64,000 bases of DNA from Amphiscolops sp. MND2022 (Eukaryota). A program made the position numbers and the translations under genes. Position 1 is the first letter of the stretch; the number at the start of each line of letters is the position of its first letter. The DNA lies in the NCBI GenBank assembly GCA_964187785.1, contig OZ076409.1, positions 62,994,001-63,058,000 of the forward strand, in the 5' to 3' direction. Shown piece by piece: positions 27,701 through 56,820 of this stretch. The notes under the pieces were generated by a model. It saw only the letters and a program-made list of their open reading frames with translations, had not been told where the DNA came from and made no database searches.

Positions 27701-29078
27701 ATTTTTCTGAAAATAATCAATGAGGAAACGTAGAAGCTTGCAATAACAAGCCTTCATTGTCGATATGGAAAAAATTTGAATAAAAATCGGTTTCTATACA
27801 CTTTGAGTTGCGGGCTTGAAATGAACCTTCGACTTGGAATCAATCAGATAATTCCTCTGATCGTTTTTTGAAAAGTAATTCCAAATTTATTCAGCATGTA
27901 AGATTTTGAGTTATACTATTCCGATGACTCCGAATGAACAAACTGCTGCACAAAACCAGAAAACTTTGTTTGAGTTTTTTCTCCCGATTGTCATGAAAGC
28001 TGGAAAGCGTTTTACTACAGAGGAGACGGAGGTTCGAATCTTATCTGTTTCGATGTTTCATTTATTTCCAAAGTCCGAAAACAGCACGCTATATCCGAGT
28101 TTTTGACGTTATACCCGAAGTAAATCGCGTTTTACTAAGGAGGATGTAGCTTCGGATATTATCAGTTTTGATGCTTCGTTTCCTTCCAAAATCGAAAGAA
28201 AAGCACACTATATCTGATTTTATTTGATCTTGAATCCGAAGTAGTTGAGGTTTCTGGTGCGAATGAAAGCAAAAAGTCTCTTAGGCCCAGAAATCCAAAA
28301 TTGCGAGTTTTCCGGAAGGGCCCTCCCTCCCTTTTAAATTTTAACAGTATTTGCTTTCTTCTGTTTTCTTTCTTCTGACAAGTAGTTTTCGAGACGATTT
28401 TGATAAACTTCAAAAACTTCCAACATTGCCCAAAAATACGAAATGATGAAATTGTTGATAATTCGATTCATTTCCAAAGCAAAAACTACAGTTGTAAGTC
28501 ATCAGAACACGATAACATTTTCCTTTGGAGATTTTTTCCACAATTGTCGATTTGAAGTTTTCAATGTTTTGGCCAACAATAATGTCTGTCCTTCACGTGC
28601 TCGCACTCCGCCGCAAGACACCAGTGACCACCAGGTGCAGGAATTTTGGTAGTTTAATCTCATTTCCACCGGTTACCACTGGTGGCCGACTGGAGACGAC
28701 AGGTGAAATGGTTTCAAAAAATTTCAAAACTGGCTTTGCTGATATGCTTGGCTTTTTGAACTTTACTTGTCGACGTTTCTTAGTTTTCATGGTATAGAAA
28801 CATTTAATCATTGGTTTCTAAAGATTTATTGTTCGTTTTTGAGAATTACTATAAAGACCCCGCTTGCATTAAATTCGCTTTTCAGCACCACTTGAAAGGT
28901 TGACTTTTGAGAAAAAAGGATTAGAGAGGTATTTGATGCAACAGTGAAACTTTTACCCAAAAACTTTCAAAAGAATCCCCCTTTGGTTTTTTGGTACTTT
29001 CAGTTTTAAAAAATGTTTTTAAGCCCAATTGGCTCCCTATAAATTTTGGAGTACTGTCGCACGCATGGGTGAAATTAG

Positions 29079-29084
29079 TTTATT
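29079..29084 (-). terminator. Predicted polyadenylation signal AATAAA in the 3' LTR
   Basis: The only minus-strand AATAAA I found in the LTR, about 25 nt from the LTR end. Confidence 0.5.
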
Positions 29085-29694
29085 AGTTTTAATCTGTCAA
29101 GTCCTTGTTTGCATTTTACAAGGTACTATCTCGCGACGGTTCTGTTATTGATTTATCAAGTATAAGTCCCAACAAATAAATTAGCAACTTACTGATAAAG
29201 GGGTGCCTTGCGTGTACGTGCGAACAAAAGAAATTGCGTGAGTCGCGCAAGGCGGTGTTTGTAAATGAGCTTCCCGTTTACTGAAAATGTATGGTGAATA
29301 AATATGTTTAATTACGAATGAGTTGAGAATATTGAAAGTGAACAATTTCTGGACATAGCAATATTTCCTTCAATTGTTACAAATCTCAGATTAATAAAGA
29401 TTACAACTTCACTTTACAAGAAGTAATATAACTTTTACAATTTATCATTTAAGAAAATGAAACTATTTACAAATAATAAGAATTTCCCTTTTTCTTCGGA
29501 AATCTTTTTCTCAAACAAAGATTACAAATCCGTACTATTTTAAACGGAAGAGTTTTGATTTAGATGTCTCTATTCAGTAGAAAGTTGAATAGCATTAAGA
29601 CTTTTTCATAATATGACACTTTAAAACTTCAATCATCCCTTTTCTTATGTGAGTTTATGTAATTTCAACCTCATAGAAATTTAGTTCTAATAAG

Positions 29695-29907
29695 AATAGT
29701 CTAAGCTAAAGTTTGGTCAACCGCAGAATTGAAATCAGCGGAAAATAATCTAAGGTAAGATTTTGTCAACCGCAGAATTGAAATCAGCGGAAAATAGTCT
29801 AAATTAAGATTTTGTCAACCGCAGAATTGAAATCAGCGGAAAATAGTCTAAGTTAAGGTTTTGGAAACCGCCGAGTTTAAATCAGCGGAAAATAGTCTAA
29901 GTTAAAG
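29695..29907. repeat. 49-bp tandem repeat (about 4.3 copies) inside the 3' LTR
   Basis: ccgc cores at 29721, 29770, 29819 and 29868 (period 49). Confidence 0.9.
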
Positions 29908-30684
29908 TCTCAGAGAGAATGAAATCTCTACTGAAAGGTCTAAATAGTCAGACTCACCAAACCGGAGACGAAATTGAAGAGAAATTTCTAAGTTAGAAAT
30001 TTCTTGTAAGGGAAGATTGGTTCTGGAAGTTGAAGTTAAATCAAGGATGAGTGGAGAAATATTCTAAGATGCAAGGGTATGATTAAAAGAGAATTATTGG
30101 ATCTGAGTTATTAAGCAAGAAGTTTTGTTGAGTTAAATAGCAATCGGAATTGAAAGTGAAGGCGAGAAATAGACTTTCTAAGTCTGAAGGGGAAGATAAT
30201 AGTAAAGGGAGAGGAAAGGGGGTAAAGTAAGAAAGAAGAGCAGGGGTGAGGGGAGAGAAGTGGAAGAGAAGTGAAGAGAAACGAGAGCTATTAAGTTTAA
30301 GCTCTGTCCGTTTCGATAAGTGTATGTGTGAATGAATCTCCTCGCCTGCGTTGGCCGTATATATACAGCCAAGCATTTCTTATCGTGCGCTGCGTAGCAG
30401 GCATGGCTTATCTTTCACCAATCATAGTTGGTTTCATATTTCAAATATACGCGGTATAATATAGAATTCTTCACTTGTGCAATTCCTTTCTCGTCACAGT
30501 ACTTCGTCATCATTATTACCATCGTTATGGCCGCCGCCTTATGACCGCCATCTTTATCTACAACTCTCTCTCCCATAAACAAACGTTAGTTCTAGTTCAT
30601 GTTTGTTTCTGTATTTGTTAGTTAAATATAGACTGCACTTTAGCACCTAATTATGTTTGTTAAAGCGTTAGTCATAACGCGACA

Positions 30685-30696
30685 GCTCACCCCCCT
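30685..30696 (-). promoter_or_regulatory. Polypurine tract of element 1 (AGGGGGGTGAGC)
   Basis: G-rich tract directly abutting the 3' LTR start on the minus strand. Confidence 0.8.
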
Positions 30697-30721: not shown

Positions 30722-31660
30722 TTATGGGTCAGACTGAAAGAAGGGGGAGTTATGTAGCGCGAGTGACTGAGGGGAAGGTTCCTTAAATTTGATTCTAAAT
30801 ATTATAGAGTCATTGTTTAGGAATGCTTCTCTGAAGTTGACAAGTAACTTCGTATGAGGGATGAAGTCTTCTTTGAGGAGGTTCGGGTGCGTGTAGAGAT
30901 TGTGAAGGGTATCTTCGTGGTTGTGGGGGTTGATTGGGAAAAGTGCGGACCACTTGTTGCCTTCGTCCTTCTGATCAAGGAATTCGACTTCTACTGTTTT
31001 ATCAAAGGGCCATGTTTGTGGGTGAGTGAAGTCGCTATAATGAAGTTCACAGCTAATAGAAGAGTGGGTCCCACGGAAGATGTTTATCCCGTAAGGGAAT
31101 ATTCTGAAGGAAATTTTGCAGCCTGATAGGTATGTTGGGTAAATAGGGCTCGCGAAGCTGTTTTTGATGTTGTGAAAGGGATCGTCTGGAGAGGTCCTTG
31201 CTTTTCGGTAAAGTGTGGAGAAGGCGGAAACTTGCCAAGTGATAAAATCTTTACCGTTCGCTTCAATCTGGCTCGCTCGGTTGAGGAGGGAGCTTTGGTG
31301 TTTGATTGTCGCTCGCAAATCGAAGATAGTGACTTCCAATTGTTGACGTTTATCTCGTGCCTCTTCGATTGAGGTACATAGCAGTTTGATTCGGTTTTCT
31401 AACTTCTTTTGGGGTTGATTAATGTCCGTTAAAGGGAAGGACTTTCGGAGCGGTGTGCTTTTTGTTCCCTGGTTATAGGTACTAGTTGATTTCTCCCATT
31501 CACTAATCCACATATTTAGTCTTTCCACTCCTTCGAGGTTTGCATGTTCTTCTTGATCGTTTTCTTCAGGCATAGGTGGCCAGTCGGGGTTAGGGATCGG
31601 TAGGTAGGGTTTGTGTTTTGGGATGAAGGGGGTGGCATTTGGGTTTAATTTTTGGCTCAT
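30722..31660 (-). CDS. PAM2 motif + coiled coil + TRAF-type MATH domain protein (312 aa), RING-less TRAF-like
   Basis: N-terminal KLNPNATPFIP matches PAM2; heptad region; ITWQV..F, SPIY..GCKISFRIFPYG..RGTHSSI, WPFDKTV..LDQ, FIPH..L and FLNNDSIIFR match TRAF-C motifs. Confidence 0.88.
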   Translation of the reverse strand: MSQKLNPNATPFIPKHKPYLPIPNPDWPPMPEENDQEEHANLEGVERLNMWISEWEKSTSTYNQGTKSTPLRKSFPLTDINQPQKKLENRIKLLCTSIEEARDKRQQLEVTIFDLRATIKHQSSLLNRASQIEANGKDFITWQVSAFSTLYRKARTSPDDPFHNIKNSFASPIYPTYLSGCKISFRIFPYGINIFRGTHSSISCELHYSDFTHPQTWPFDKTVEVEFLDQKDEGNKWSALFPINPHNHEDTLHNLYTHPNLLKEDFIPHTKLLVNFREAFLNNDSIIFRIKFKEPSPQSLALHNSPFFQSDP

Positions 31661-32238
31661 TGTGCAGATATGGATCTTAAGGGAACTGTCAGCCGCTGTC
31701 CCTTCAGTGCAGGGTTCTCAATAGTGTATTCTTGTCTTTTGTTGTCCCAAAAGACGATTTTCCAGGTTGAAAACTGTGGGAGTAGAGAATACTTTAGGTT
31801 TGCGTTAAACCTAGGTTTTTTAACGTATCTGGCTTTTCTAGTGAAGTATTCCCTTTTATGTTGCTTATGTAAGGGTGCTTCATCGGCTATCTCGTTGTTC
31901 CATTCATGATAGTGTTTTTGTGGTGTGTTTCTTCTGATGTCCTTTCCACCAAATCTAGGAGGATGTTGTGTTGACGGGATTGGTGGTATGTCTCCTGTGA
32001 ATGACAAAGGAAAGGGGAGTTGGTCGGATGGCGTTGGTGTGAAGGTTGGAGTTGGAGATTTTGAGGGTGATGATGGGACCGTTGAGTCAGGGGGGTCGGG
32101 AAGGAAGGTAATTGTTGTAGACGAGTCTGGTGTCAAAAAGTCTGAAGGAGATAGGGGTTCGATTTCTAGGTCACTTTCTGGGATAGGATCCAGGGTATCG
32201 TCGTCCAGGCTTGGTAGGTCGAATAGTGGTTCTAGATT
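31657..32238 (-). CDS. ATG-less ORF/exon (193 codons; acidic Pro/Ser/Thr-rich, then basic region), probably spliced to the env N-terminus
   Basis: The frame opens immediately after tttacttttAG (32239); it contains no ATG; its stop overlaps the next ATG (ATGA). Confidence 0.65.
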   Translation of the reverse strand, partial: NLEPLFDLPSLDDDTLDPIPESDLEIEPLSPSDFLTPDSSTTITFLPDPPDSTVPSSPSKSPTPTFTPTPSDQLPFPLSFTGDIPPIPSTQHPPRFGGKDIRRNTPQKHYHEWNNEIADEAPLHKQHKREYFTRKARYVKKPRFNANLKYSLLPQFSTWKIVFWDNKRQEYTIENPALKGQRLTVPLRSISAQ

Positions 32239-32284: not shown

Positions 32285-34432
32285 TTATATTGGAGCTACG
32301 AAGCTCTGTACTGAGGGATAAAGTGATTCTTCCTTATTCTTCAGTGCTTGGAGTTCTACTTCTTTTCCATTATCTTCAGTTTTCGCGTTTTTATCTTCAA
32401 CGCTATCCTCGTAAGGGGCCCGCGGGGTGAATACAGAAGTTAAAACTGAAGTAAAGAAAAGATTGTACGAAGCACTGAGCAATGTTTTAGTGAAGCTCAG
32501 TGTATTACCTGTGAGGTGACGAAGTTCAAAGTATCGGAAGACGAGTACCGTGATATCTATTACGAACTTAATGAAAAGAAAGGCGCCAAAATACGCGCCG
32601 CAGAGTTCTAGTACGTAAGATATACTTCCAAATGTTTCAAGGAACTGATTTTTGAAGTAATCGGGTGAGATCATGCCGTCAACATAAAAATCTGTACGGG
32701 GTGCATAATACGCGAAAGATTCAGGTCCACTATGGGCCATTGAGGGTGTGATGAGCTCACGTGAGAACTTCTGGAGGGCGTTGCGAGACGCTGCGCTGAT
32801 GAGGATGTTGTCCCAAAATTCTGAGAGTTGTTTAGGCGTATACATTCCCGCGTCTTGTGAACCAGGGAAGGATCTAGTAATCATTGGTTGTATGTCTTTG
32901 GGTCCGAAGATAGCAGGTCGGTCGCGATGTTCGGGTGAAGGAGTGAGGGTAAACCAGGAGTCTTTGTCTTCCATATCCAATTGAAAGAGGTTCTTAATGC
33001 GATCGCTGCAATTTTGGGCGTTCGCGTTAGGATAGGTCTGTCGGGTGATTGGGTCCACGAAGGCAACCACTCCTTTGTAGAAGATGGGTATGCGGTCGTA
33101 GCATCGGTTCATCGTGTGAAGAGGTGAGTGGGATTCCGGGCAGTGGTAGAGCCAAGCGAGGCTGCCATCTGTGTTCAGGAACATTGAGCGATTTCCCGTG
33201 AGCATGTATCCGGCGAGGCGAGGATTTTCCACTGATAGCATCAAAATAGTAAGGATTTGAGTTCTTTCTTGTTCGCATTGTGCTTTGAGGAGCTGGATTT
33301 CTGAAGCTTCGAGGAGACGAGTGCTCTCAAAGAAGAGATAATCAAGCTTTGTCCCTTGGTGTAACTCGTAATCCATGTTGAGGTAATGAGGTGTATTAGG
33401 GTTGGGGTCGCTCGGGCCTCGAAAGAGGTGGAGTCGGCCATTACCAGAACCATCTTCGGGTGAATAATATTGTAGTTTAGATGTCTCTCCCATGGAGATG
33501 CCGAGTCGTCTGCCGGACGTCATGTCGAAGCCACCAAGTTGGATTGAAACGTACAGGGATTCGTAGTTGGTCGGGTATACATCGTCTGGTTTGTTGCAAT
33601 ACTTTTGTGGTCTGTTGTAGACTTCGAATAAAAATTTGGTAGTGGAGTCGTTGCCGCTTACGATATAGTAGTTAGATCCGTGTTTGATCATGTTCACGAT
33701 TTCTTTCCTATGTACTGCAAGCACGCAATTATCGGGTTCCGCCCATGTGTAGGCGTATGGGTCCAGTGACGTCGTTTCGCAACCTAGTTGTTCTAAGGGG
33801 CAGGGAAGGACCATCTGAAACGGAGTCAGGACTTTTCCATCTCGAGTTTTTACTGATAATTCAGCATCTTGGATGTGAGATTCGAATGTTTCTCTTTTGA
33901 TCCAGCCACCTGTCTTGCATTCATTTCGGGTATCTGGGTCGCGTACACCGTCCCAACCCTTTCCGTATTTGGCGTTTCTCGTCTGTACTTGTTTCACTCC
34001 TTTCTTAAATTTGAGGGGTTGTCCATGGATTATGACTTCTTTGCCTTCACCCATTGCCTTGCAGGTTTCGGGTGACAGGGAAAGATCGCTGGTGATTCCG
34101 TCGTGTAGGATTGACATACTGGAGTGGTCGTGATAACCACAATGCCATTCTTCACTCTGATGTTTCACACGGCACATAGTGGCGTTGATAGTGCGGCGGA
34201 AATGTTTAGTGTATAACGTTACGCTCGCACGACTTACCTCTAAGTTTTCAGGTGCCACATTGCATTGTTCAACTTGATTCAATGCGTAGAGTTTATTTTG
34301 GGTCATTTCGCCGCAGTCGAAATGAGTTACTCGCAGTTTTTTAGCAACGCTAGCGAGGTTTGGCGTTGGACGTTGTAATATCACAACGGGCGCGTAATGG
34401 GCGCATAAAAAGAGTAAGTAAAATAATTTCAT
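32285..34432 (-). CDS. env: Env-like fusion glycoprotein (715 aa), chuvirus/Jingchuvirales glycoprotein-like
   Basis: N-terminal signal peptide; Cys pattern HFDC..ALNQVEQC..CRVK..WHCGYHDH..PETC; C-terminal transmembrane segment (CGAYFGAFLFIKFVIDITVLVF); splice acceptor TTTCAG 2 nt before the ATG. Confidence 0.85.
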   Translation of the reverse strand: MKLFYLLFLCAHYAPVVILQRPTPNLASVAKKLRVTHFDCGEMTQNKLYALNQVEQCNVAPENLEVSRASVTLYTKHFRRTINATMCRVKHQSEEWHCGYHDHSSMSILHDGITSDLSLSPETCKAMGEGKEVIIHGQPLKFKKGVKQVQTRNAKYGKGWDGVRDPDTRNECKTGGWIKRETFESHIQDAELSVKTRDGKVLTPFQMVLPCPLEQLGCETTSLDPYAYTWAEPDNCVLAVHRKEIVNMIKHGSNYYIVSGNDSTTKFLFEVYNRPQKYCNKPDDVYPTNYESLYVSIQLGGFDMTSGRRLGISMGETSKLQYYSPEDGSGNGRLHLFRGPSDPNPNTPHYLNMDYELHQGTKLDYLFFESTRLLEASEIQLLKAQCEQERTQILTILMLSVENPRLAGYMLTGNRSMFLNTDGSLAWLYHCPESHSPLHTMNRCYDRIPIFYKGVVAFVDPITRQTYPNANAQNCSDRIKNLFQLDMEDKDSWFTLTPSPEHRDRPAIFGPKDIQPMITRSFPGSQDAGMYTPKQLSEFWDNILISAASRNALQKFSRELITPSMAHSGPESFAYYAPRTDFYVDGMISPDYFKNQFLETFGSISYVLELCGAYFGAFLFIKFVIDITVLVFRYFELRHLTGNTLSFTKTLLSASYNLFFTSVLTSVFTPRAPYEDSVEDKNAKTEDNGKEVELQALKNKEESLYPSVQSFVAPI

Positions 34433-34500
34433 TTCTGAAATTCTTCAGTCTTTGACAATCAATCAGGAAAAATGTTTTTTATAGATATGTGGATCCACGG

Positions 34501-34934
34501 TAAGGCCGTAAAAAGGCAAGCCGTAATATCAAACCGGCAGCTTAGCTGGCACGACACTAAGCGGAGGTTAAAATTTTATAGTAGTAACCTCACTACTATT
34601 GGAAAGTGCCTTATGGAAAGATTGTTGTTTTTTGTTTAAAGTATAGGTTTCGGAGTAAGGCCGTAAAAAGGCAAGCCGTAATATCAAACCGGCAGCTTAG
34701 CTGGTACAACACTAAGCGGAGGTTAAAATTTTATAGTAGTAACCTCACTACTGTTCACACGTACCTAAGAGAAGGAGAAGTTTATTTGTCTTTTAGTTTA
34801 GTTTAATGTTATGGATCCTGAAATAAGGCCGTAAAAAGGCAAGCCGTAATATCAAACCGGCAGCTTAGCTGGCACGACACTAAGCGGAGGTTAAAATTTT
34901 ATAGTAGTAACCTCACTACTATTCAAAGAGTGCC
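34501..34934. ncRNA. Three tandem copies of a 97-nt structured RNA motif (cores 34501-34597, 34656-34752, 34824-34920)
   Basis: Near-identical cores separated by divergent linkers; three hairpins, an H-type pseudoknot and a covarying loop-to-flank pairing. Confidence 0.7.
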
Positions 34935-35931: not shown

Positions 35932-36172
35932 CGGTGAGCTGTTATGCCTTGTGGCGTGTGTGCATCAAACATAGCAAATCTGAGAATGGAATCATCAGTT
36001 ATTTCATTGCGTTTTTGGGGGTATTTGTAGAGGAGAGAGGATTACGACTTCATGAGTCGTCGTAGTAAACTAGACAAATGTCCGGGTAGGATATTATATT
36101 TTATATCTGATGACTAAGTTGAATAGTGATACATATATGGTTGACTTTAATCAATAATTATAAACATTTTGC

Positions 36173-36868
36173 ATGACTTTAAATAAATCAAATTTGTATT
36201 TAGGGATGAGCAACAACGACAACAACAACTATAGCGACTATTACGAAGAATCCTCGACCGATGAGGAGACTACTGCTCCAGGGTCTGTGTCGGGCACTGC
36301 CGCTACCTCTTTGCCGCCACAATCGTCGTCGTCAGCTGGGCCGTCCTCGTCGAGCGGAGCGCGCACCAGTTCTTCTGCTCCCGCGTCATCAGGTTCTCAG
36401 GCAGGGACCTCTGGGGGTGGGTCTTTTGTGGCGTTTGTGGCCCCGAGGACTAGTGGCCCTTTTCCGCAAGCTCCCTCTACCATCTCGCAGGGTGTTTTGG
36501 AGAGCCCTGGGGATCAAAGTTTTATGGGTTTATTTACCCATAGGGATATCGACCGCCTAGAAAACTGGGCTTCATTAACTAGTTCCCTTCAGGGTACCCC
36601 CGGGTTTTCTGTTTCTGGTCCTCCCGGTCCAAATGCTCTAACTAGTTTCTTGCGGGCTAACTGGGGGGCCCGTTGGGAGCAGACTCTCCTGTCCTCTCTC
36701 GGCGAAATAGTCGTCTTCCAGCTGCGAGCCTACATAAGTGGCTACTCGCAGCTGACTAGTTTTGAGAGGGGTCAGTGGACCCGCCTCTATTCATTGTGGA
36801 CAATGGGGGAGCGGGCGGCTCAGCTGCGGCGACTTGCAGAGAAGGGAGGTTTCCTGGAAATTGAGTAG
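36173..36868 (+). CDS. Antisense accessory ORF (220-231 aa; acidic, Ser/Gly-rich N-terminus, helical Trp-rich C-terminus)
   Basis: Long GC-rich ORF opposite to element sense, occupying its own segment with no listed ORF on the other strand; likely ATG at 36206, just after tttag. Confidence 0.72.
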   Translation: MTLNKSNLYLGMSNNDNNNYSDYYEESSTDEETTAPGSVSGTAATSLPPQSSSSAGPSSSSGARTSSSAPASSGSQAGTSGGGSFVAFVAPRTSGPFPQAPSTISQGVLESPGDQSFMGLFTHRDIDRLENWASLTSSLQGTPGFSVSGPPGPNALTSFLRANWGARWEQTLLSSLGEIVVFQLRAYISGYSQLTSFERGQWTRLYSLWTMGERAAQLRRLAEKGGFLEIE

Positions 36869-37427: not shown

Positions 37428-38246
37428 TTATTCTTTGTAACCAATTCTAGTCCTTTCACGAAGTATGGACTGTCGTGCTGGTTGATTGGGTTGTGCTCGC
37501 TGATAACGTGGATTTCTCTCTATTTGGCGGGCAACAGCCTTTCGTAACTCTTGCAAGGGAGTCGTTGACTTGGTAGACGATGCCGGGGTGTTAGTTGGGG
37601 GTGCTGGAGTTGGTTGACGTTGAGTTAACGTCAGGATAGGGGTTGCTGCGTTTTGAAGAGGTGATGTCGAAGGCTGATCGGGAGTCTTGGGAGTTGACAA
37701 CAACTGATTTTCTGGAGAGATGATACCAGAGTCTGTGCTCTGGGGGGTTTGCGTTCTTTTGCGGGCAAGTATTTGGTTTTGTTGATTCCGTACTGGCAAT
37801 ATGCAGAGGTCTCCGAGTTTTTGTGGTTCTGAAACATTAAGTTGTTCAATTCTTCCTTTGACAAGATTGTTATAAAAATCCGTGTCTCCACGGTGGGGAG
37901 TAGTGTATTCTTCGATAAGAGGGGGGAGTGTTTCTTCTTTAGGAAAGTATTCTATTAGATGGTTCCTATGTACAGTTCGGAGATTCTCGGGGTTTTGATC
38001 TTCCATTATTTGGTAAGTTGTATTTGTAATTCGTTTGGTAACCGTAAAGGGTCCTAGTCGCAGTTGTTGGAGTTTTTGGCTTTTGGAGAGGTCTTTTCGA
38101 TGGTTCTCTAGCAGAACCTTTTGTCCAATGTTGAGGTGGTTCCCAAGTTTAAATCTGTTCCTGTAGGCGTGTGATTGAGCTGTTTGTTTTCTGCACTTTT
38201 CATATGTGGATGAGTAGACCTTTTTGAAGGCTGTTTCTCGTTCCAA
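37428..38246 (-). CDS. Integrase C-terminal region (GPY/F motif) plus Pro/Thr-rich tail, split from pol by a 1-nt frameshift near 38250
   Basis: IGQKVLL...LGPFTVTKRITNTTYQI...TVHRNHL is the typical gypsy integrase C-terminus; it overlaps the end of the pol ORF in the -1 frame. Confidence 0.88.
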   Translation of the reverse strand: MERETAFKKVYSSTYEKCRKQTAQSHAYRNRFKLGNHLNIGQKVLLENHRKDLSKSQKLQQLRLGPFTVTKRITNTTYQIMEDQNPENLRTVHRNHLIEYFPKEETLPPLIEEYTTPHRGDTDFYNNLVKGRIEQLNVSEPQKLGDLCILPVRNQQNQILARKRTQTPQSTDSGIISPENQLLSTPKTPDQPSTSPLQNAATPILTLTQRQPTPAPPTNTPASSTKSTTPLQELRKAVARQIERNPRYQRAQPNQPARQSILRERTRIGYKE

Positions 38247-41200
38247 TAAGTTTGTGATAGTTGTGGTCGTAATAGTCCATTTAGTAGTTCGTTTTTGACT
38301 TGGTTTTCGCTATGGCAATGAGGAGGTAATCCTTGACAGAATTGTGATTTGCAGTTCTTGTTTTTGTTCCTGTAGAGTCCCAGCTTCAGACTCATAGGTA
38401 TCTGTGGTTTATTGCAAAACACTATCTCGTAGGGGGTCTTTCCAGTCGTGTAGTTGACGCTTGTGTTGTGGGCGAATGCAAATTTGGCAGCTAGTTGGGC
38501 CCAGTTGTTTCCTGATTCGTTTAGGAAGTTTCTCCAGTATCTTGCAATGTGTTGATTTTGAGTTTCTACTTTGCCATTTGTCCAGGGTGAGTGTGCGGTT
38601 CTTGGTCGAAGTGTAATGCCAAACTCTTTAGTCCAATTGACGAATTCAGTGTTCACGAAAGCTGTTCCTCTATCATGTACGATAGATTGAGGGATGCCAT
38701 AGTGCATAATCCATTTTTCCATCGCATTGATTGTAGATTGTGCTCCTGTGTCTCTGACTGGGTATGCCATCAGGTAACGTGAGAAGGCGTCGATGATCAG
38801 AAGGCAATGTGAATTTCCACGACTGGGAGGATTGAGTGGTCCTTTGTGATCAATGTGGATGGTTCTGAATACTTGAGTTTCGGTTTCGCAGTCTTCCAGT
38901 GGGACTTCGTTGTTTCTCCGTTGTTTGGATTTGTTAGATTGGCAGCTAACACAATCTTGTGTGAGGGCACAGATCCAGTTGTGCATCCCTGGCCAGTAGT
39001 AAAATCTCTTAGCATTGAGGAAGGTCTTTTCTGCTCCCATGTGGCCGCCGAGGTCGTTGTAATGTCCCATACGAAAGCAAGCTAAAAATAGAGAGAGAGG
39101 TAGACAGATTCTCAGATTCTCGTCTGTTGGGTCATCAGTTGGCTCGTTATAACAAAGGAGGTTTCCTTGGCCTTCTATAGATAATCTGTCGAATTCCTGA
39201 AAGTAACGCATGAGGCCTTTTGAGTGTTGTAACTCTGGTGATTTTGGTTCGGGTTTGTTTCCTGTTCTTACCCATTGTCGGACCACGCTGAGTACCGGGT
39301 CATTTATTTGTTCTTGTAAGATCGTTGTAACGTTTAGTTCTACTTCTTTGGATAGTTTATCAAGTTGTCTGACAAGTTCCTGTGTTGGTGTCTTTTGTTT
39401 TTCAGTTGAATTTGTAGGTAGATCGAGGTGTTCTATTGCCTTCGCGTTTTTGGGAAGACTTGGGTTACGTGCGATGGGATCTTCTGTGTTGAGCTCGTAG
39501 TTGGTCTCGTTTATTTCTTGACTCTGATTGTCTGTGAGGGCTTCGTCATCCGTATCACTGTTGATGGAGCTGTAAGTGTTTTGTGATAAATCCGAAGTGC
39601 TATCCCGTGTTCCTGACCTGATTCTTAGTTCTTCGAATTTTCCAAGTTCTCTTCCAGCGTCGAGGCAACTCTGTGCTGACTCTACTTTCGGCAGGTTAGG
39701 TTCCTCGTAGATAGAGTTAACTGTGAAGTTATTCCCATCATTTTGGAGATGAAGTACTTTCCGTTTTTTTCCCTTCTCGTACAAGATGGGGTAAAAGTCG
39801 TTCTTGGATGTCTCTTCATTTTCTTCGTGTTTGATTTTGTAGTGTACTTGGGTTCCATGTTCGTCGAAAAAGTGTATGTCAGTTGGGATGACTTTGTGAC
39901 TGAGTTGATGTTTCTTGTGTTCCTCGATGGAGACGTTTCGACTGAGTATATCAGGGAAGGCTAGGTTGCTTCCTGGAGTCCAAATTATCTTGAGATTCGG
40001 GAATTTAGATATAATTACTTGGTACCTGAAAAAACGGGGTGAAATTTGTCCCTTTCTTCCCCAGAGATAAAGAATCGGCTTGTGATCGCAGTATAGGTAG
40101 ATGGGGAAGGGAGATCCGATGATGTAGTGTTCATACGTCTGAAGAGCTGAGACTATGCCACATAATTCTCTGTGTAGTGTGGACATCTTTTGTTCTTCCT
40201 TTGCGAAAACTCTTGAGTTGAAGGAAATGATCCGTTTCCCTTCTGGGAATTGTTGGATGAGGATACATCCTGTCCCAACGTTTGACGAGTCGACGTGTAT
40301 GTGAAAGGGGTATTTTGTCGAGGGTATTGCGAGCACTGTGTCTTCGGTAATTTTTTTCTTTATTTCCTGGAAAAGGTCTTCGTGTTCTTGGTTCCAGCAA
40401 AAATTTGTATCTTTCTTGGTGAGTTCGTAAAAAGGTCGACTATCGACATGAAGATTCTTGATGTAGCAGCTATAGAAGCCCAAAGCTCCTAAGAAGCTTT
40501 TCACTTCGGTTTTGGTCTTTGGTGATTTGAGATTGTGTAGGTCTTTTACTCGTTTTGCGACGGGTTGTATTCCTTCGGCTGCTATCACGTGTCCCAAAAA
40601 CTTGACTTTCCTTAAGAAGAAGAGTGTCTTATCTGGTGCTGCCTTGAGTCCGGCTTTCCGCAGTAAGTTATGGTATTCTTGAATTACCGTGAACATTTCT
40701 TGTTTGTTTTTGGCTTGCATCAACGTGTCGTCGATGTATGTAATTGCCTGTTTCCTTTTGATGAGGGGTTCGAAGTGGATAGTCATCATTCTGCTAAAGA
40801 AGCTTGGTAATCCCTTGAGTCCATAGAATCCCCTGGTGAAGGTGTATTGTTTTCCGCCAATGATGAAGCTGGTGAGTTTTTGCGTGGGCTCGTCTAATGG
40901 GACTTGGTGAAATGCACAGGAGAGATCACTTACTGAGAAGATGTTTCCATTTATTAGTGTCATTATGGTTTGGATCGGTTCTAAGGGCCAGGAATAATTT
41001 GTTAGATCTGTCACCGAGTTTAGATATCTCGCATCTATGATCAGCTTGACATAGTCATGTTTTGGTTGTAGTATAATAGGATTCACAAATAAGGATCCCA
41101 TTTCTTCATCGTCGCCCATTTCTCTGATGATATCAGCGTCTTTGAGTTGTGTGAGTAGCTTCTCTAGCTTTTCTCGTAGGTGAAGTGGTACTTTGCTGGG

Positions 41201-42937
41201 TCTCTGTCTCTTTAGAATTGCTCCAGGTTCTAGTTTAATGTTAAATTTTTGTCTGGTTTTCCCTACGTCAAATTTGTGTTGGGAGTATACATCTCTTGCG
41301 TCCATTAGTAAGTCTATTAGGAGAACCAGTTCTTCGTCTGTGAGGTCTGAGTAGCGAAAGTCGAATTCTTTAATGTATCGCACTGCTTCTTTATTTTGAT
41401 ACTGAAGGTAGTACTCGATCAGTCGTTCGTTGTCTTCTTTTGGCCTGAAGATTTTAAATTGCTCATCGCAGGGTGGTTGACAGGACTTTGCGTCGCTTGT
41501 GAAGTCTGTCTCCAGCTCTCTATGTTTGAGATGAAATTGCTCGGAAAATTGTTGTATCTCATCTTCTAGTACGTATTCGGGGTCTCCTCTTGTAGTCATG
41601 GCATAGACATCTAGTTCGTTTCTTGTATAAATTCGGAGTTGTATTTCTGAGTATGCAAATACGTCTTGAATGAGTTGAGTGACGTCTTGCCATTGGAAGT
41701 CTTCTAGCTCTGAGGCTTCCCGTAGCATGGATATAGTTTTGATGCCGCTCATTTTGGCGTGTGCTTTTAGAGTTTCGAGAGATTGAACTAGTAATTGTGG
41801 GTCAATCTTGTCTTTTGATTTTGCTTTCGTAATCAGAACATATATAAATCGTTTCAGAGTTTCGTCCCAGTAGGGTATGGTTTCTCCTTTCTGTGGTTTC
41901 TGTTTTGCGCATGTATCCTTAAGTGAAGGTATTTTCGTTAGGATTTCTTTTGAGAAGCCTTTGGCTGGCTTTAGGTCGGCCGGGACGAAGATGATGATAG
42001 GGTCTGGTCTGCTGAGTATTGTTTTCGAGTTTCCTCCTTCTATTCTGAGGCAATCGTTCATATCTTGTGAAGGAATGGTAGAGTGTAATAGGAAACAGTC
42101 GTTGTATTCTTCGTTTTCGTTTAGGATAGCATATGCGAGTTCTGTCGGGTTTCTAATTTGGTATTTCGGAATTTCTTGGTCTAATACGTCAAGCATTGAG
42201 TATCCGATAGTTCCTTTTACTAAGGTGATTGTATGGTTTTTGTTGTTTTCCATGACGATTGGTAAAGTCTTCTCAAATCGTGTACAGAGGACATTTATGA
42301 AGTTAAGTCCAGTAGAAACTGCCTTCCTGTTCGGTAGGAACGTAGATCCAGGAGGAAATGAGTTATTAGTGTTTTCCGGTGCGAATTTGTAACATCTTGT
42401 CGTCTTTGGTTCGATATACATTGAGTGAGGAATTCGGACTGAGAGAATTTGTGATAGATAGGGGTAACATTTGTTGAGTTGTAGGCTACCATAGCAAAAA
42501 GTATTTATAGGTCTTTTGAGTTCTATGCCAGGAAGATCAAAGTGTATTTTGTTAACTTGTTCTTGGCAGAAATTCATTCCAAGGAGGTTTTGGGTTTTCA
42601 TCTCTGTTATCCAGACTGTTAATGGGAAGTTATGTTGTCCATCGGAATCGTAGTAGAGTTTGAGGGTGATGTATCCCATCATAGGGATGATCTGCCCAGA
42701 GTAATTCCGTGTTGTGTTATTGCTTCTACTAAGTTCTAGGTCTTGTTGAAACTGGCAAAGTTCTCTAAAGGTCCTGTAGTTGATGATTGAAGATGTTGCC
42801 CCAGTGTCTAGTAGAAATTCGATTTCTAAGCCACTATCTTTTTGTGAGTCTCCGGCAGCAAAATAATAAAGATTAAGACTAAATTTTAGAGGGGCACTGC
42901 TGCTATTTCTATTTTTCGGAGACCTTAGTAGTTTAAA
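38108..42937 (-). CDS. pol: Pol polyprotein: aspartic protease, macrodomain, RT, RNase H, integrase (entered by frameshift)
   Basis: FLLDTGA (upstream of the listed ATG) and LLGMNF protease; DLSCAFHQV, FYGLKG and YIDD RT; IHVDSS, HRELCGI and YCDHKPI RNase H; H-H-C-C (GHY..GGH..CVSC) and IHIDH / IVHDRG / NGKVE integrase. Confidence 0.96.
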   Translation of the reverse strand, partial: FKLLRSPKNRNSSSAPLKFSLNLYYFAAGDSQKDSGLEIEFLLDTGATSSIINYRTFRELCQFQQDLELSRSNNTTRNYSGQIIPMMGYITLKLYYDSDGQHNFPLTVWITEMKTQNLLGMNFCQEQVNKIHFDLPGIELKRPINTFCYGSLQLNKCYPYLSQILSVRIPHSMYIEPKTTRCYKFAPENTNNSFPPGSTFLPNRKAVSTGLNFINVLCTRFEKTLPIVMENNKNHTITLVKGTIGYSMLDVLDQEIPKYQIRNPTELAYAILNENEEYNDCFLLHSTIPSQDMNDCLRIEGGNSKTILSRPDPIIIFVPADLKPAKGFSKEILTKIPSLKDTCAKQKPQKGETIPYWDETLKRFIYVLITKAKSKDKIDPQLLVQSLETLKAHAKMSGIKTISMLREASELEDFQWQDVTQLIQDVFAYSEIQLRIYTRNELDVYAMTTRGDPEYVLEDEIQQFSEQFHLKHRELETDFTSDAKSCQPPCDEQFKIFRPKEDNERLIEYYLQYQNKEAVRYIKEFDFRYSDLTDEELVLLIDLLMDARDVYSQHKFDVGKTRQKFNIKLEPGAILKRQRPSKVPLHLREKLEKLLTQLKDADIIREMGDDEEMGSLFVNPIILQPKHDYVKLIIDARYLNSVTDLTNYSWPLEPIQTIMTLINGNIFSVSDLSCAFHQVPLDEPTQKLTSFIIGGKQYTFTRGFYGLKGLPSFFSRMMTIHFEPLIKRKQAITYIDDTLMQAKNKQEMFTVIQEYHNLLRKAGLKAAPDKTLFFLRKVKFLGHVIAAEGIQPVAKRVKDLHNLKSPKTKTEVKSFLGALGFYSCYIKNLHVDSRPFYELTKKDTNFCWNQEHEDLFQEIKKKITEDTVLAIPSTKYPFHIHVDSSNVGTGCILIQQFPEGKRIISFNSRVFAKEEQKMSTLHRELCGIVSALQTYEHYIIGSPFPIYLYCDHKPILYLWGRKGQISPRFFRYQVIISKFPNLKIIWTPGSNLAFPDILSRNVSIEEHKKHQLSHKVIPTDIHFFDEHGTQVHYKIKHEENEETSKNDFYPILYEKGKKRKVLHLQNDGNNFTVNSIYEEPNLPKVESAQSCLDAGRELGKFEELRIRSGTRDSTSDLSQNTYSSINSDTDDEALTDNQSQEINETNYELNTEDPIARNPSLPKNAKAIEHLDLPTNSTEKQKTPTQELVRQLDKLSKEVELNVTTILQEQINDPVLSVVRQWVRTGNKPEPKSPELQHSKGLMRYFQEFDRLSIEGQGNLLCYNEPTDDPTDENLRICLPLSLFLACFRMGHYNDLGGHMGAEKTFLNAKRFYYWPGMHNWICALTQDCVSCQSNKSKQRRNNEVPLEDCETETQVFRTIHIDHKGPLNPPSRGNSHCLLIIDAFSRYLMAYPVRDTGAQSTINAMEKWIMHYGIPQSIVHDRGTAFVNTEFVNWTKEFGITLRPRTAHSPWTNGKVETQNQHIARYWRNFLNESGNNWAQLAAKFAFAHNTSVNYTTGKTPYEIVFCNKPQIPMSLKLGLYRNKNKNCKSQFCQGLPPHCHSENQVKNELLNGLLRPQLSQTYWNEKQPSKRSTHPHMKSAENKQLNHTPTGTDLNLGTTSTLDKRFC
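42847..42937 (-). promoter_or_regulatory. Programmed -1 ribosomal frameshift signal (U UUA AAC + downstream stem)
   Basis: TTTAAAC at 42937-42931 is in the gag frame, one codon before the gag stop. The -1 frame is open through FLLDTGA into pol. Stems GGTCTCCG/CGGAGACT and GCAGCA/TGCTGC begin 6 nt downstream. Confidence 0.88.
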
Positions 42938-44379
42938 GGGCGGAAATCGGCAATAGAGTTCACCGAGTAGTCGGTTTCTAAGAACTGTACTGTGTTGGAT
43001 CTTCCTATGTCATTAGTTTTTGGGAATCTTTGCTCGTAAGATTGAGTTGGAGTGTTGGGTCTTTCGTTTCTGTCTAGTGGTCTTTGAAAAACTGAGTTAT
43101 TTCTTGGTGGAAGAGGTTGTATGTTGCGATTAAAGGAGCTAGACTGGTCTCTGTTGAAGTTGAACGGAGATCTTGCTCTTTGGGGTCCAGGGGAAACACT
43201 TCTGGAGTTGTTAGAATTGTTTAGGAAGGGTCTTCTCCCTTCTTGTGAAAATCTTTGGTTACCAGGATTGACTCTTGTATTCGTAGGTCGGCGTTCTGGG
43301 TTGAAATTTTTTCTTTGTGGTCTATCGTATTGATTCCAGGCAGGGTTTGACTGCATAGCTCCAGCCAGTGCTAGTTGATGTGCCACAGCCATATGTTTTC
43401 TGATTTCTGAATCTGGTAATCTTGGTTGAAATCTAGAGCCATGTTCAGGTCCAGTTCTCTTGTTGTAGTCGTTGGTGAATGTTATTCTTCTTTCTGGGTT
43501 AGCTTCGTTTTGAACCTTCTTCACTTCTTCATCTCTCATCTTCTTTCTGCACCAGTTAGGTGTGTGTCCATTTGTTCGGCAGTAGCCACAGAATCGTGTG
43601 GCCATTCTTCGACCTGTAGCATTAGGGTCTACAGTTTTCTCTACTGCGTTGATTGTGTTATTCATCTGTTCTTTGATTTGTAGTTTGATTCCCTTCAGGT
43701 CGTCTCGCATTTCTTGTATGAGTGGGTCTGAATGTGATTCTCCGCCAGTTAGGGCGGTAGTTACCGTGTAGGAGAGATCTTTGTTTATTATAGCTTGGGA
43801 GAATTGTTCCCAGGTTGCATTCGGGTGATCCATTAAATATTCGTGTGCCTTTTCTCTCAGTTTTGGAGGTCTTAGGCCTCTCAGTGAGTAGTCGATGCAC
43901 CTTTGTCTTCTTTGTCGGTCTTGTGCTGCTCTTTCTGCGTTTCTGTCGTTTTGTGCGACGCCGGCAAGATCATCTGGCCAGCCTTTCCCCACAACAATTT
44001 TGATTCTGTGTAGAAAATTCTTTATCTCTTCTCCATCTCTTCTGGTGACATGTTCTGCTTCCATTCTGTGTCTGAATTTATTTCGGCCATCTGCGAATCT
44101 TGTGATGAACCTTTCTCTGATTTCTTGCCAGGTGTTAGCGTCTGTGATACTTGTCTCGAACCACTCCGCTGCTGGTCCTCTTAGTAGTGTAGCAAAGTAG
44201 GATTTTCTCCTGAAGTTGTAGTCGTCAAGTGCTGCTCCGTTTGCTGGGGTATCACCATGAGAGAAACGGAACTTCTTTTCAATTAGCTGTATAAATTGTT
44301 CAGGATCTTGATCTGGGTCTGTTCCCGTGAATTGGTCTCTGCCGAGGTCTGGATAAGCCAAGTAATTTTGCGCAGCCAT
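42925..44379 (-). CDS. gag: Gag (484 aa) with capsid-like region and CCHC zinc knuckle
   Basis: LLRGPAAEWF...TWQEIRERFITRF capsid-like motif; CGYCRTNGHTPNWC = C-X2-C-X4-H-X4-C; first long ORF after the PBS. Confidence 0.93.
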   Translation of the reverse strand: MAAQNYLAYPDLGRDQFTGTDPDQDPEQFIQLIEKKFRFSHGDTPANGAALDDYNFRRKSYFATLLRGPAAEWFETSITDANTWQEIRERFITRFADGRNKFRHRMEAEHVTRRDGEEIKNFLHRIKIVVGKGWPDDLAGVAQNDRNAERAAQDRQRRQRCIDYSLRGLRPPKLREKAHEYLMDHPNATWEQFSQAIINKDLSYTVTTALTGGESHSDPLIQEMRDDLKGIKLQIKEQMNNTINAVEKTVDPNATGRRMATRFCGYCRTNGHTPNWCRKKMRDEEVKKVQNEANPERRITFTNDYNKRTGPEHGSRFQPRLPDSEIRKHMAVAHQLALAGAMQSNPAWNQYDRPQRKNFNPERRPTNTRVNPGNQRFSQEGRRPFLNNSNNSRSVSPGPQRARSPFNFNRDQSSSFNRNIQPLPPRNNSVFQRPLDRNERPNTPTQSYEQRFPKTNDIGRSNTVQFLETDYSVNSIADFRPLNY

Positions 44380-45395: not shown

Positions 45396-45413
45396 GCCTC
45401 ACTGGTCGCACCA
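45396..45413 (-). promoter_or_regulatory. Primer-binding site of element 1 (TGGTGCGACCAGTGAGGC)
   Basis: Starts with TGG 3 nt after the 5' LTR. Its complement GCCTCAC-TGGTCGC-A-CCA has tRNA 3'-end architecture (T-stem CTCAC as in tRNA-Met(e) or Ile-UAU). The tRNA identity is unresolved. Confidence 0.85.
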
Positions 45414-46055
45414 GTTTGTCGCACGCATGGGTGAAATTAGTTTATTAGTTTTAATCTGTCAAGTCCTTGTTTGCATTTTACAAGGTACTATCTCGCGACG
45501 GTTCTGTTATTGATTTATCAAGTATAAGTCCCAACAAATAAATTAGCAACTTACTGATAAAGGGGTGCCTTGCGTGTACGTGCGAACAAAAGAAATTGCG
45601 TGAGTCGCGCAAGGCGGTGTTTGTAAATGAGCTTCCCGTTTACTGAAAATGTATGGTGAATAAATATGTTTAATTACGAATGAGTTGAGAATATTGAAAG
45701 TGAACAATTTCTGGACATAGCAATATTTCCTTCAATTGTTACAAATCTCAGATTAATAAAGATTACAACTTCACTTTACAAGAAGTAATATAACTTTTAC
45801 AATTTATCATTTAAGAAAATGAAACTATTTACAAATAATAAGAATTTCCCTTTTTCTTCGGAAATCTTTTTCTCAAACAAAGATTACAAATCCGTACTAT
45901 TTTAAACGGAAGAGTTTTGATTTAGATGTCTCTATTCAGTAGAAAGTTGAATAGCATTAAGACTTTTCATAATATGACACTTTAAAACTTCAATCATCCC
46001 TTTTCTTATGTGAGTTTATGTAATTTCAACCTCATAGAAATTTAGTTCTAATAAG

Positions 46056-46268
46056 AATAGTCTAAGCTAAAGTTTGGTCAACCGCAGAATTGAAATCAGC
46101 GGAAAATAATCTAAGGTAAGATTTTGTCAACCGCAGAATTGAAATCAGCGGAAAATAGTCTAAATTAAGATTTTGTCAACCGCAGAATTGAAATCAGCGG
46201 AAAATAGTCTAAGTTAAGGTTTTGGAAACCGCCGAGTTTAAATCAGCGGAAAATAGTCTAAGTTAAAG
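46056..46268. repeat. 49-bp tandem repeat (about 4.3 copies) inside the 5' LTR
   Basis: Unit ...aaccgcagaattgaaatcagcggaaaatagtctaa... with period 49. Confidence 0.9.
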
Positions 46269-46690
46269 TCTCAGAGAGAATGAAATCTCTACTGAAAGGT
46301 CTAAATAGTCAGACTCACCAAACCGGAGACGAAATTGAAGAGAAATTTCTAAGTTAGAAATTTCTTGTAAGGGAAGATTGGTTCTGGAAGTTGAAGTTAA
46401 ATCAAGGATGAGTGGAGAAATATTCTAAGATGCAAGGGTATGATTAAAAGAGAATTATTGGATCTGAGTTATTAAGCAAGAAGTTTTGTTGAGTTAAATA
46501 GCAATCGGAATTGAAAGTGAAGGCGAGAAATAGACTTTCTAAGTCTGAAGGGGAAGATAATAGTAAAGGGAGAGGAAAGGGGGTAAAGTAAGAAAGAAGA
46601 GCAGGGGTGAGGGGAGAGAAGTGGAAGAGAAGTGAAGAGAAACGAGAGCTATTAAGTTTAAGCTCTGTCCGTTTCGATAAGTGTATGTGT

Positions 46691-46726
46691 GAATGAATCT
46701 CCTCGCCTGCGTTGGCCGTATATATA
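46691..46726 (-). promoter_or_regulatory. Predicted LTR core promoter: TATA box + initiator
   Basis: TATATATA (46726-46719) lies about 30 nt upstream of an Inr-consensus TCATTC (A at 46694) on the minus strand. Confidence 0.6.
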
Positions 46727-49700
46727 CAGCCAAGCATTTCTTATCGTGCGCTGCGTAGCAGGCATGGCTTATCTTTCACCAATCATAGTTGGTTTCATAT
46801 TTCAAATATACGCGGTATAATATAGAATTCTTCACTTGTGCAATTCCTTTCTCGTCACAGTACTTCGTCATCATTATTACCATCGTTATGGCCGCCGCCT
46901 TATGACCGCCATCTTTATCTACAACTCTCTCTCCCATAAACAAACGTTAGTTCTAGTTCATGTTTGTTTCTGTATTTGTTAGTTAAATATAGACTGCACT
47001 TTAGCACCTAATTATGTTTGTTAAAGCGTTAGTCATAACGCGACAGTACATTTGCTCTTTTTGAGCCTTAGGCAGGTCGCCGACTCATGCCGTTCCCGGC
47101 TTGTTTTGTAGTTTAAGATTCATAAAGACGCCGACTTATGCGGTTCTCGGCTTGTTTCATAATTTAAGGTTCCCAAAGACTAGAGACATTTTACTTCGCT
47201 GGCAGAAAATTTCAAAGTGCAAGATTTTTAATGTTCGTTTGACCGAAAAGTCTCAGAAGCCTAAATTTCTAAATATTCTATGTAAATTGAAATCTTATTT
47301 TCCGTTTCGCAATGAATCAAAAAACGCAAAAACTAATATATTTTGGATTTTCGGGAGATCTTTGTATAGTTACTCATGCACTATAGTTAACAAGGAAAAA
47401 TCTCATCTAATGCTTGCATATTGATGGTCTAAATTCCCTAATTCAGCACCTAATTCACCGAGTTATCTGACATATGGTTTAAGAAAACAGCATTTTGGGA
47501 CTACTTAAGTGAAGCTGGCTCAGTTCTTAATACAATCCCAGAGCAAAATGTCTTGAAACTCTTGTATAGATCTTACATATTCTCATATACTATTGAAAGC
47601 GTTGATAAGATCTTGCTTCACACAGATCTCTTGACTTTTATGAAATGAATTTTGGTAAGAGTTTCATCAAGAGTGGCAAGAAAATAAATAACTTACGGAA
47701 CAACCAATAGTTTTGTTTACAATTACACTGCTATTGCTCGAAGTACCATCTTCACTATCACAAGGTTTTGAAATTTAGGATCGATTTATTATTGAAATAA
47801 AGCTCGACTAACAGAGGGTTCGTGTGTCGTTTTGTACTTCATCAATTTTTTTGATTTTCTCAATCTGGTCGACGTGACCGTAAATTGTTTAAAATACGAC
47901 GAAAACGATTCAAAGGGTTCTCCTTCTTTCTTTTCATGCAATGTACAACATTTTCTGAATTTTTGATTTCTCCAAAAATGTTTTTTTACTTTTTGACAAC
48001 TTCAGCCCGAAAGTTGTTTTTCAAGACTGTGAGACTATTGTCATCAGCCTTCCAGCATATTTGAGGATAATATAGCCAAAAAAACTCTTCTAGTTTTTGT
48101 TCCTCAACGTAAGATTGTCTTTAACCGGGGCGTCGACAAACCAAAGTTGAGTTTGAAAAACAAGATAGGATCGCTTCATTCAGAATTTTCCAATGATGAG
48201 TGCAAACATAATCTTTGCCAGTCTAGAATATGATTTTCGTGTTTAAGAATTGGTTCCCATTTTACAATGACGTAGTTTAGGTTTATTAACGACTGAAAAT
48301 ACGACAGGATAAATTTGAAAATTCGGCAACGAATAATCCAGGAAACGTAGCTATTATATCGTTCATCTTCGAAGACGCCATCATTCATCTTCATCCTGAA
48401 AGTTTCATCGCCGTCATGAAATGAAAAACTGGCTGGTTATTTTTTTCTATTCTTAATCTTCTAATCTTTCTAAATCTTAATCTCTTTTCTCTTTTTGTCG
48501 AGGACTCTTTCCAGAAAGTTTTAGGAATCAGTCTGAAGATGAGAGTTTGAAGGCCCAGGAGACCAATTCCTTTGTTCCATCTGCTGCCTAGCAGTACAAA
48601 GTGGCTTCACATCTTGCAAAAGAGTAGTGATGAATCTGCACCTTTTTAGAACTAATGTAACCTAGAATGATTTGGATATATTGCAATTTCATTACCGAGT
48701 TTTTTGGCCTTGAAAACTATAAAAAACAATGTAGTGTAAAATTTTTTCGATAGATTGCCCACATATAACATTATCAGTTATAACTTGAGCTGGGTTAGCG
48801 TTTTCGAAAGTAAAAGTCAAAAAATGTTTGTATCAAAATTATATTTGCCGTCCTCCTCAACACTTTTCGTTAAATAAATAGAACCAGTGAAAGTAACAAT
48901 TGTCAGTCTATGAGCCTCAAAATCAAAAAGGCTGCACTAAAAATATTTTCGACACTTTGTGCGGAAATAATTTCGATAAAACTTCCCGCTGAGTTTTTGA
49001 AAATTTTTTGTTCCCGTTGGATTATTTTCTCACGTTCTCTGTGATACATTGTTGCTGATAGGAGGTGTCTTGTTTTGTTTCTTTCTACATACAGAATACA
49101 ACAAATATTGCAAAGACACCGCGCTTGTTTCAAGTTTTGTCGGAATGTAAGTGCTTGACGTCCTACTCTTGGCGTTGATTTTTTCGCGGGCGTAAATTTC
49201 AACTGGAGTGCAGGCTTATTTGATACACCCCACTGTTGGAAAACTTTGGAACAAATCATGCATATGGTTACTTGCCTGGGCAAACCTAACCCAAATTAAA
49301 ACAACAATCTTCTATTTCAGACAAAATATGAGGACCGCCTTTTTACATTGCAGGAAAACACTTGCTAAGACTTGATATCTTATGTTTGTCAAAAATGCTC
49401 GGTCAAGTTGTTTTGGAAAAAATCGACCCAATTTGTGAGTTTGCCAAGTTCGGTATATTTCATCCGTAACAAAAAACGTAATACCAATAGTTTCCAGTTC
49501 ATTCATGCATGAAAAAACCTTTTTTCCAGAAGTTTGTGCAAAAAGGTACGATTAGCAAGTGTCTTTGGCAAAATGCTTTGGTTTTTGGATAAGCGAGCGA
49601 ATTAATTGCAGTAGTGAGATTATTTATTCATACAAACGCACGTATCTTTGCGAAAATTGTCTCGCTAACTGTTCCTTATCGAATGCTTGCTCCGCTACCG

Positions 49701-56808: not shown

Positions 56809-56820
56809 CTCTTCCCTTCT
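56809..56820 (-). promoter_or_regulatory. PPT of element 2 (AGAAGGGAAGAG)
   Basis: Pure purine 12-mer abutting the TG of the 3' LTR. Confidence 0.88.

Follow-up and report, generated by a model that had tools for sequence, protein, structure and literature searches.

The env gene analysed here is, in our reading and with a probability of roughly 0.8, an intact gene of a young, multi-copy Ty3/gypsy retrotransposon of 18 kb, and its predicted class III product likely lets the particles of the element enter host cells. It was found in a window of 64,000 nucleotides, the whole stretch of Amphiscolops sp. MND2022 DNA that was analysed (contig OZ076409.1, positions 62,994,001 to 63,058,000). The element is unusually gene-rich and recently active, and many near-identical copies of it occur with several diverged families in one genome. 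It also harbors an RNA motif that shows compensatory changes and belongs to no Rfam family; in an unrelated contig a homologue of the motif likewise precedes env. The features are listed in Table 1.

Table 1. Features of the element and of its surroundings (window positions unless a locus is named)
Feature	Position	Strand	Remarks
Host element of env, Ty3/gypsy		inner genes minus, except antisense ORF	17,991 bp; LTR pair and target-site duplication
5' LTR	45417..47045	-	TG...CA ends, 7-bp terminal inverted repeat, 49-nt tandem repeat inside
3' LTR	29055..30684	-	99.94% identical to 5' LTR: one gap, 0 mismatches
Target-site duplication GTAC, 4 bp	29051..29054	.	second copy 47046-47049
Primer-binding site	45398..45413	-	common to all families examined
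Polypurine tract	30686..30696	-	
gag (Retrotrans_gag)	42925..44379	-	Pfam
pol: PR, macrodomain, RT, RNase H, integrase, Tf2-type SH3	37428..43009	-	Pfam
TARG1/OARD1-like macrodomain in pol, between protease and RT	41615..41974	-	E 1e-11
ORF A, 128 aa	37034..37420	-	starts 8 nt past pol stop; dN/dS 0.06-0.09
Antisense ORF, 234 codons stop to stop	36164..36868	+	N-terminal part acidic, Ser-rich
x1, 73 aa	35710..35931	-	acceptor-like TTCTCAG about 50 nt upstream in 5/5 elements
x2, 131 aa	35315..35710	-	start overlaps x1 stop (TAATG) in 5/5
x3, 114 aa	34981..35325	-	start overlaps x2 end
RNA motif, three copies of about 115 nt	34495-34609, 34650-34764, 34818-34932	-	predicted H-type pseudoknot and hairpins
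env, 715-aa class III-like (gB/chuvirus-type) glycoprotein	32285..34432	-	ORF, Pfam, fold search
Pro-rich ORF	31657..32238	-	C-terminal domain (about 70 aa) conserved; the window element's family lacks an ATG here
312-aa ORF: PAM2-like motif, probable coiled coil, TRAF-C/MATH	30722..31660	-	Pfam; no RING
Hairpin motif of families C, D and E	L014 3258-3785, L016 3143-3691, L018 3996-4661, L019 3991-4674		2/11 pairs change both sides
Dispersed repeat, about 50-60 nt	14682-14742, 47045-47156, 50897-50957, 51282-51334, 52980-53040, 12434-12484	both orientations	

The assignment to Ty3/gypsy follows from TG...CA LTRs, a short target-site duplication, a primer-binding site (PBS), a polypurine tract and a pol in the order protease (PR), reverse transcriptase (RT), RNase H and integrase with a Tf2-type SH3 domain. 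The RT-RNase H region matched Ty3 RT best (E 3e-31, the next family at E 4e-23), and neither gag nor pol matched a BEL/Pao-specific Pfam domain at E up to 0.1. The LTRs differ by one gap and no mismatch and are flanked by the GTAC duplication, so the insertion is very young. The 13-nt genomic complement of the PBS lies at the 3' end of a tRNA-like copy with a CAT anticodon that ARAGORN did not call, and the tRNA-Met called by ARAGORN at the same locus differs at 1 of 13 nt; the primer is likely tRNA-Met(CAT). That locus (L001) is a cluster of tRNA-Arg, tRNA-Met and the degenerate Met-like copy that matches the PBS. A TTTAAAC slippery-like site stands at the end of gag in 6/6 elements, which suggests a -1 frameshift from gag to pol. 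Measured by the 'intact' pol of a published survey (PMC13524379), pol of the window copy is interrupted by a frame change near 38,270, in the C-terminal part of integrase, so that this copy could not move alone, whereas the six near-identical full-type copies fetched all read through the point and some are broken elsewhere. Among 343 candidate DNA matches to env in the genome, 25 of the 40 scored were 99-100% identical. At the protein level at least 138 matches were scored (6,631 candidates) in five or more families, and the full 719-codon frame was a stop-free match in 21 of the 25 best. Gypsy gag-pol and a gB-type env thus lie in one multi-copy LTR element, which is what PMC13524379 operationally terms an HSV/gB-type errantivirus.

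A first-pass annotation made from the letters had described an intact 715-aa frame with a signal peptide, a Cys-rich ectodomain and a C-terminal transmembrane (TM) segment. The frame is indeed open for 715 codons on the minus strand, from 34432 to 32285, and the TM segment was recovered as a hydrophobic stretch at about residues 603-637 (Kyte-Doolittle maximum 2.09). The N-terminus is hydrophobic (Kyte-Doolittle 19-mer 1.8, residue 1), and the signal peptide is a candidate judged by hydropathy. Fourteen ectodomain Cys (C40-C475) are conserved: at each of these positions 89-98% of the aligned homologues with a letter there have the Cys (alignment of 63 of the 120 homologues listed), but the richness is modest, with 16 Cys in 715 residues overall. 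This type I topology with conserved ectodomain Cys, as given by hydropathy and alignment, is what is expected of a class III protein. Env has four N-glycosylation sequons and no furin site (R-x-[KR]-R). Candidate fusion loops are flanked by the conserved W96/C98/G99 and C172/W177, and their tips are variable and mostly polar. The plus-strand reading of the env region was also considered and is closed.

Pfam PF24664 (Monjiviricetes_fusion) matched env at E 8e-33 and was the sole Pfam family at E up to 0.1; sequence searches against solved structures, single or with a profile, gave nothing at E below 0.3. The AlphaFold2 model of env is weak (mean pLDDT 61, pTM 0.40), is better over residues 61-310, and contains long strands and a 43-residue helix (360-402). 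In BFVD the top Foldseek match was the G of Tacheng tick virus 4 (E 1e-23, 17% identity), followed by a chu-related virus G and then by xinmo-, qin- and rhabdo-like G, with herpes gB first appearing at rank 16 (E 3e-12). The PDB matches listed were herpesvirus gB throughout (best E 4e-10). A second aligner (VIA) superposed 80 residues of gB domain II with an rmsd of 2.3 (Z 7.2) and placed Mokola virus G at Z 6.0; its scores for env, Z 6-7.4, all stay below 8, the value from which the tool counts a match as clear, and whole-chain TM-scores are low (0.11-0.29). A fusion domain, a PH-like domain II and a long central helix, the layout of the gB/G-like fold, can be recognized on this weak model. 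Env is likely a class III fusogen of the herpes gB or chuvirus G type, a call in which the profile match and the fold searches agree and behind which no single strong superposition stands. No baculovirus F or other class I protein was among the fold matches listed, a listing that by itself excludes nothing, and we found neither a furin site followed by a fusion peptide nor an F-family Pfam match (E up to 0.1). The Foldseek check of the predicted fold proposed in the first-pass annotation ended with chuvirus-type G and herpes gB as best matches, and the chuvirus-like, class III-like glycoprotein that it had seen as the env of a gypsy element is upheld by PF24664, by the BFVD top matches to G of chuviruses and relatives and by the gB top matches in the PDB. 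Env shares predicted fold, domain order and Pfam family with the G of Chuviridae and Xinmoviridae and with herpesvirus gB, but it is 9-17% identical to them and is encoded by a retroelement.

The splice acceptor reported immediately before the env ATG fared less well. A TTTCAG acceptor-like site does end 2 nt before the ATG in the window copy, and the AG is found in 6/8 near-identical copies fetched, but it is present in 0/5 sister-subfamily loci and a 75% relative does not have it at the corresponding place. Since the AG is poorly kept across copies and subfamilies it is probably not a required signal, and TTTCAG is probably not the working acceptor.

The three copies of the RNA motif span 60-500 nt upstream of the env ATG. 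On the sense strand, which the G-U pairs favor, each is predicted to fold into a hairpin, the 6-nt loop of which base-pairs with a hexamer lying downstream, and then into two or three more hairpins. Across 12 distinct copies 97% of the cells pair and 7/24 pairs change on both sides, compared to 1.3 after shuffling and 0-2 in slid controls, with 3/6 such pairs in the pseudoknot helix; since the structure was derived from these same, mutually related copies, the counts are biased toward it. The loop and its partner co-vary as GAGGTT/AACCTC, GAGATT/AATCTC, GAGGCT/AGTCTC and GAAGCT/AGCTTC. The motif model matched positions 88-199 of a metagenome contig left out of model building (L040; 58.6 bits, E 6e-12), about 100 nt upstream of an env, and the loop and partner of that contig, GGAGCT/AGCTCC, contain a further compensatory pair. 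The pseudoknot has a mismatch in one copy, and pairs are broken in 2/22 variant copies. As the first hairpin is nearly invariant and without covariation support, a plain alternative hairpin or a switch may stand in place of the pseudoknot.

Families A and B and contig L040 have the motif upstream of env, and it is also present at L013 4798-5090. The model gave no match in families C, D and E or in six of seven metagenome loci including L038, and neither the element nor three relatives matched Rfam at the gathering level. The layouts of the pistol, twister and hammerhead ribozymes, compared by eye, do not fit the motif. Its position in A, B and L040 points to a part in the production or translation of the env message, and we give about an even chance to an involvement of this structured RNA in env expression or RNA handling. 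Exoribonuclease-resistant RNAs are described in protein-coding subgenomic RNAs of plant viruses in the available text of PMC6299227 and 10.1101/2020.04.30.070631. They offer an analogy only, and roles as an IRES, in export or in packaging are equally possible for the motif. A literature search for a pseudoknot or IRES upstream of env, thin for subscription papers, found no such RNA motif. Between pol and env, families C, D and E have 4-8 tandem copies of another hairpin motif, for which Rfam gave no match.

Besides gag, pol and env the element encodes a set of accessory products. The macrodomain is found in all pol-bearing families of the genome and not in the metagenome contig L038. Family E keeps the Gly-rich loop known from the human protein; family A has another sequence in its place, and owing to this loss the family A domain may bind ADP-ribose rather than hydrolyse it. 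The antisense ORF is kept in sister subfamilies, with dN/dS 0.12 in the sole unsaturated pair. The predicted x3 is a four-strand meander with three helices (model pLDDT 84); its fold search gave a best Z of 5.2 and no BFVD match at E 0.001. ORF A has weak similarity to a small-protein family, and ORF A, x2, x3 and the small ORFs of families C-E seemingly form one divergent family, in which the links between A-type and C-E-type proteins are weak (E 1e-4 to 1e-2). Neither this small-protein family nor the Pro-rich ORF has a Pfam family or a solved relative. Just after the env stop, a pyrimidine tract with AG, acceptor-like, was seen in 10/10 loci, by eye and with no control. L038 has two copies of the conserved domain of the Pro-rich ORF, each followed by a coiled-coil-like tail, and gave no TRAF match. 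The start of the TRAF/MATH ORF overlaps the preceding stop (ATGA) in 5/5 A/B elements, and its dN/dS is 0.12-0.20. Wherever measurable, dN/dS of the accessory ORFs was 0.05-0.20, a sign of purifying selection on each of them.

Env is constrained much as integrase is. In Nei-Gojobori pairwise comparisons with three sister subfamilies its dN/dS is 0.04-0.05 at dS 0.5-0.7 and that of integrase is 0.02-0.03; deeper pairs are saturated and give no ratio. Such purifying selection is evidence that env is important to the element, which does not imply membrane fusion. Env could be kept for a task other than entry, such as a block to superinfection by related elements or viruses or a fusion of neighboring cells that passes capsids directly. 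Two deletion derivatives on two chromosomes (L005 and L006) fit such a task: they have lost gag-pol and keep env at 99%, in the order 5' LTR, PBS, about 1.3 kb with a second MATH-like ORF (a relative of which is at L013 2979-3509), three RNA motifs, env, Pro-rich ORF, TRAF ORF and 3' LTR. So do the several ORFs of the element that are likely to modulate the host. However, with 98% identity over the part that they share the derivatives are young, and their age may be all that the retention of env reflects; moreover, env is as constrained as pol and sits in the canonical position after pol in every autonomous family examined. We therefore consider a non-entry role improbable and keep to env as a gene for particle entry.

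The first-pass annotation had further proposed that the fusogen of a negative-strand RNA virus was captured independently by a gypsy lineage, which we weighed as a recent capture from a chuvirus-like virus. The BFVD ranking, with G of chuviruses and relatives well ahead of herpes gB (E 1e-23 vs 3e-12), the name of the Pfam family, taken from such viruses, and the several separate endogenizations of such glycoproteins described in the available text of PMC10084718 speak for this proposal. Yet the best named viral match is 17% identical, whereas the homologues borne by retroelements run from 96% down to 41% identity in step with pol. The env of the sister subfamilies (5 loci) is 95-96% identical to that of the window, and the metagenome contig L038, a gag-pol-env element with the same PBS core, is 70% identical in RT and 41% in env. 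The RT, RNase H, integrase and env trees agree for 8 elements (A/A2/A3 with B, C with D, L038 on the longest branch); these trees have 8 rows, 7 families or subfamilies from one genome and L038, none of them a named virus; the outgroup branch is long, several forks are open and the roots are midpoint ones. By Pfam the ORFs of the element contain no L or N domain of chuviruses, and in IMG/VR 0/86 candidate stretches were confirmed as relatives. A profile search of 1.84 billion representatives returned 336 proteins at E up to 1e-30 and 2,141 at 0.001. As env diverges in step with pol, it has long been carried by the same pol lineage; the link appears to be old rather than a fresh pick-up, and it may go back to an ancient, lineage-specific capture. 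A recent capture is thus quite unlikely, and the capture by a gypsy element is not new either: the available text of Chary & Hayashi (PMC13524379) reports a Chuviridae-like glycoprotein beside gypsy pol in 114 elements. Finally, a host-domesticated fusogen or an inert viral fossil inside a transposon, as the interrupted pol of the window copy might suggest, is scarcely credible, given that at least 138 env matches were scored, spread over five or more families, that the LTRs are near-identical and flanked by a target-site duplication, and that 6/6 near-identical full-type copies read through the break.

With env as the entry gene of a mobile element, the following course can be proposed. The full-length RNA would give Gag and, by a frameshift at the slippery-like site, Gag-Pol; a spliced or otherwise subgenomic RNA would likely give Env, and the accessory proteins would be made from spliced or subgenomic RNAs, partly by stop-start reinitiation. 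Env would enter the ER through its signal peptide, be displayed as a trimer on budding Gag particles and fuse target membranes without furin cleavage, and the element would probably be carried from soma to germline, as the accessible part of PMC13524379 describes for Drosophila errantiviruses. Drawn by analogy with known class III fusogens and Drosophila errantiviruses, the course from ER entry to germline spread has in our view somewhat better than even odds. The TRAF and macrodomain modules would probably dampen host responses.

A gypsy element with a chuvirus-like env being already published, the env alone is one more example. The accessible portion of PMC13524379 describes gB-type env as widespread and ancient, and states that expression and cell entry of gB-type retroelement envelopes are unknown. 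Like the HSV/gB-type errantiviruses, our element has the order gag-pol-env, a gB-like ectodomain between signal peptide and TM segment, conserved Cys, no furin site, multiple young copies and an env that diverges with pol. It differs by its length of 18 kb, its pol-env gap of 3.0 kb and its PBS, which matches neither Met_CAU type of that survey, and by the additional macrodomain, TRAF/MATH ORF, small accessory ORFs and RNA motif. The first filters of the survey, in its available text, allowed a gap up to 1 kb and a length up to 10 kb, and 3-5 kb downstream were checked in some groups. The term 'macro domain' occurs 0 times in its main text, 'traf' 0 times in its supplements, and acoel terms in neither. 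Judged by the text, cargo and RNA motif set the element apart from published gB-type gypsy elements; the sequence catalogue of the survey may already include the family. We found no macrodomain in a gypsy pol in the literature, a weak negative since subscription papers and Repbase entries were largely uncovered.

Two other groups of elements come close. Anakin and other mosquito BEL/Pao elements carry a Chuviridae-like glycoprotein (PMC7642597, as cited in the available text of PMC13524379 and PMC10084718); the same glycoprotein family is in the env position here, but in an element that is Ty3/gypsy by RT and Pfam. In its accessible part PMC10084718 reports gypsy fragments near such glycoproteins and no clear capture. 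The planarian Burro/GYPSM1, as far as the available text of PMC6431247 goes, is likewise a giant gypsy element with MATH/TRAF-C, extra ORFs and tandem repeats; its env region has matches to mononegavirus fusion proteins, and interference with host signaling was proposed. However, the env of Burro is gypsy-Env/F-like and forms part of a 4,900-aa polyprotein, in frame with gag before it and pol after it, while ours is a separate gB-type ORF, and between PR and RT it has a dUTPase where our element has the macrodomain.

Taken further, the element could be a complex invertebrate retrovirus on a gypsy backbone. Such a virus would have a class III env and would weaken host defence by means of its macrodomain and of a TRAF decoy that carries a motif for PABP binding. 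Stop-start reinitiation would yield its family of small accessory proteins, its derivatives would include env-only satellites, and its env message would be produced or translated through a new pseudoknotted class of cis-RNA (Xrn1-resistant or IRES-like) instead of a splice acceptor. We offer this extended reading tentatively and regard it as rather doubtful.

The window holds further repeats. A second, unrelated LTR element lies at 55039-61930, with LTRs of about 1.8 kb that are 96% identical; on the minus strand it has gag-like, aspartyl protease and TARG1-like macrodomain ORFs, and RT, RNase H and integrase queries gave no match in it. Long palindromes and an inverted-repeat pair, MITE-like, were seen at 17045-17338, 21268-21451 and 17604-18386. 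The env-bearing element itself apparently inserted beside a copy of the dispersed repeat of about 50-60 nt listed in Table 1.
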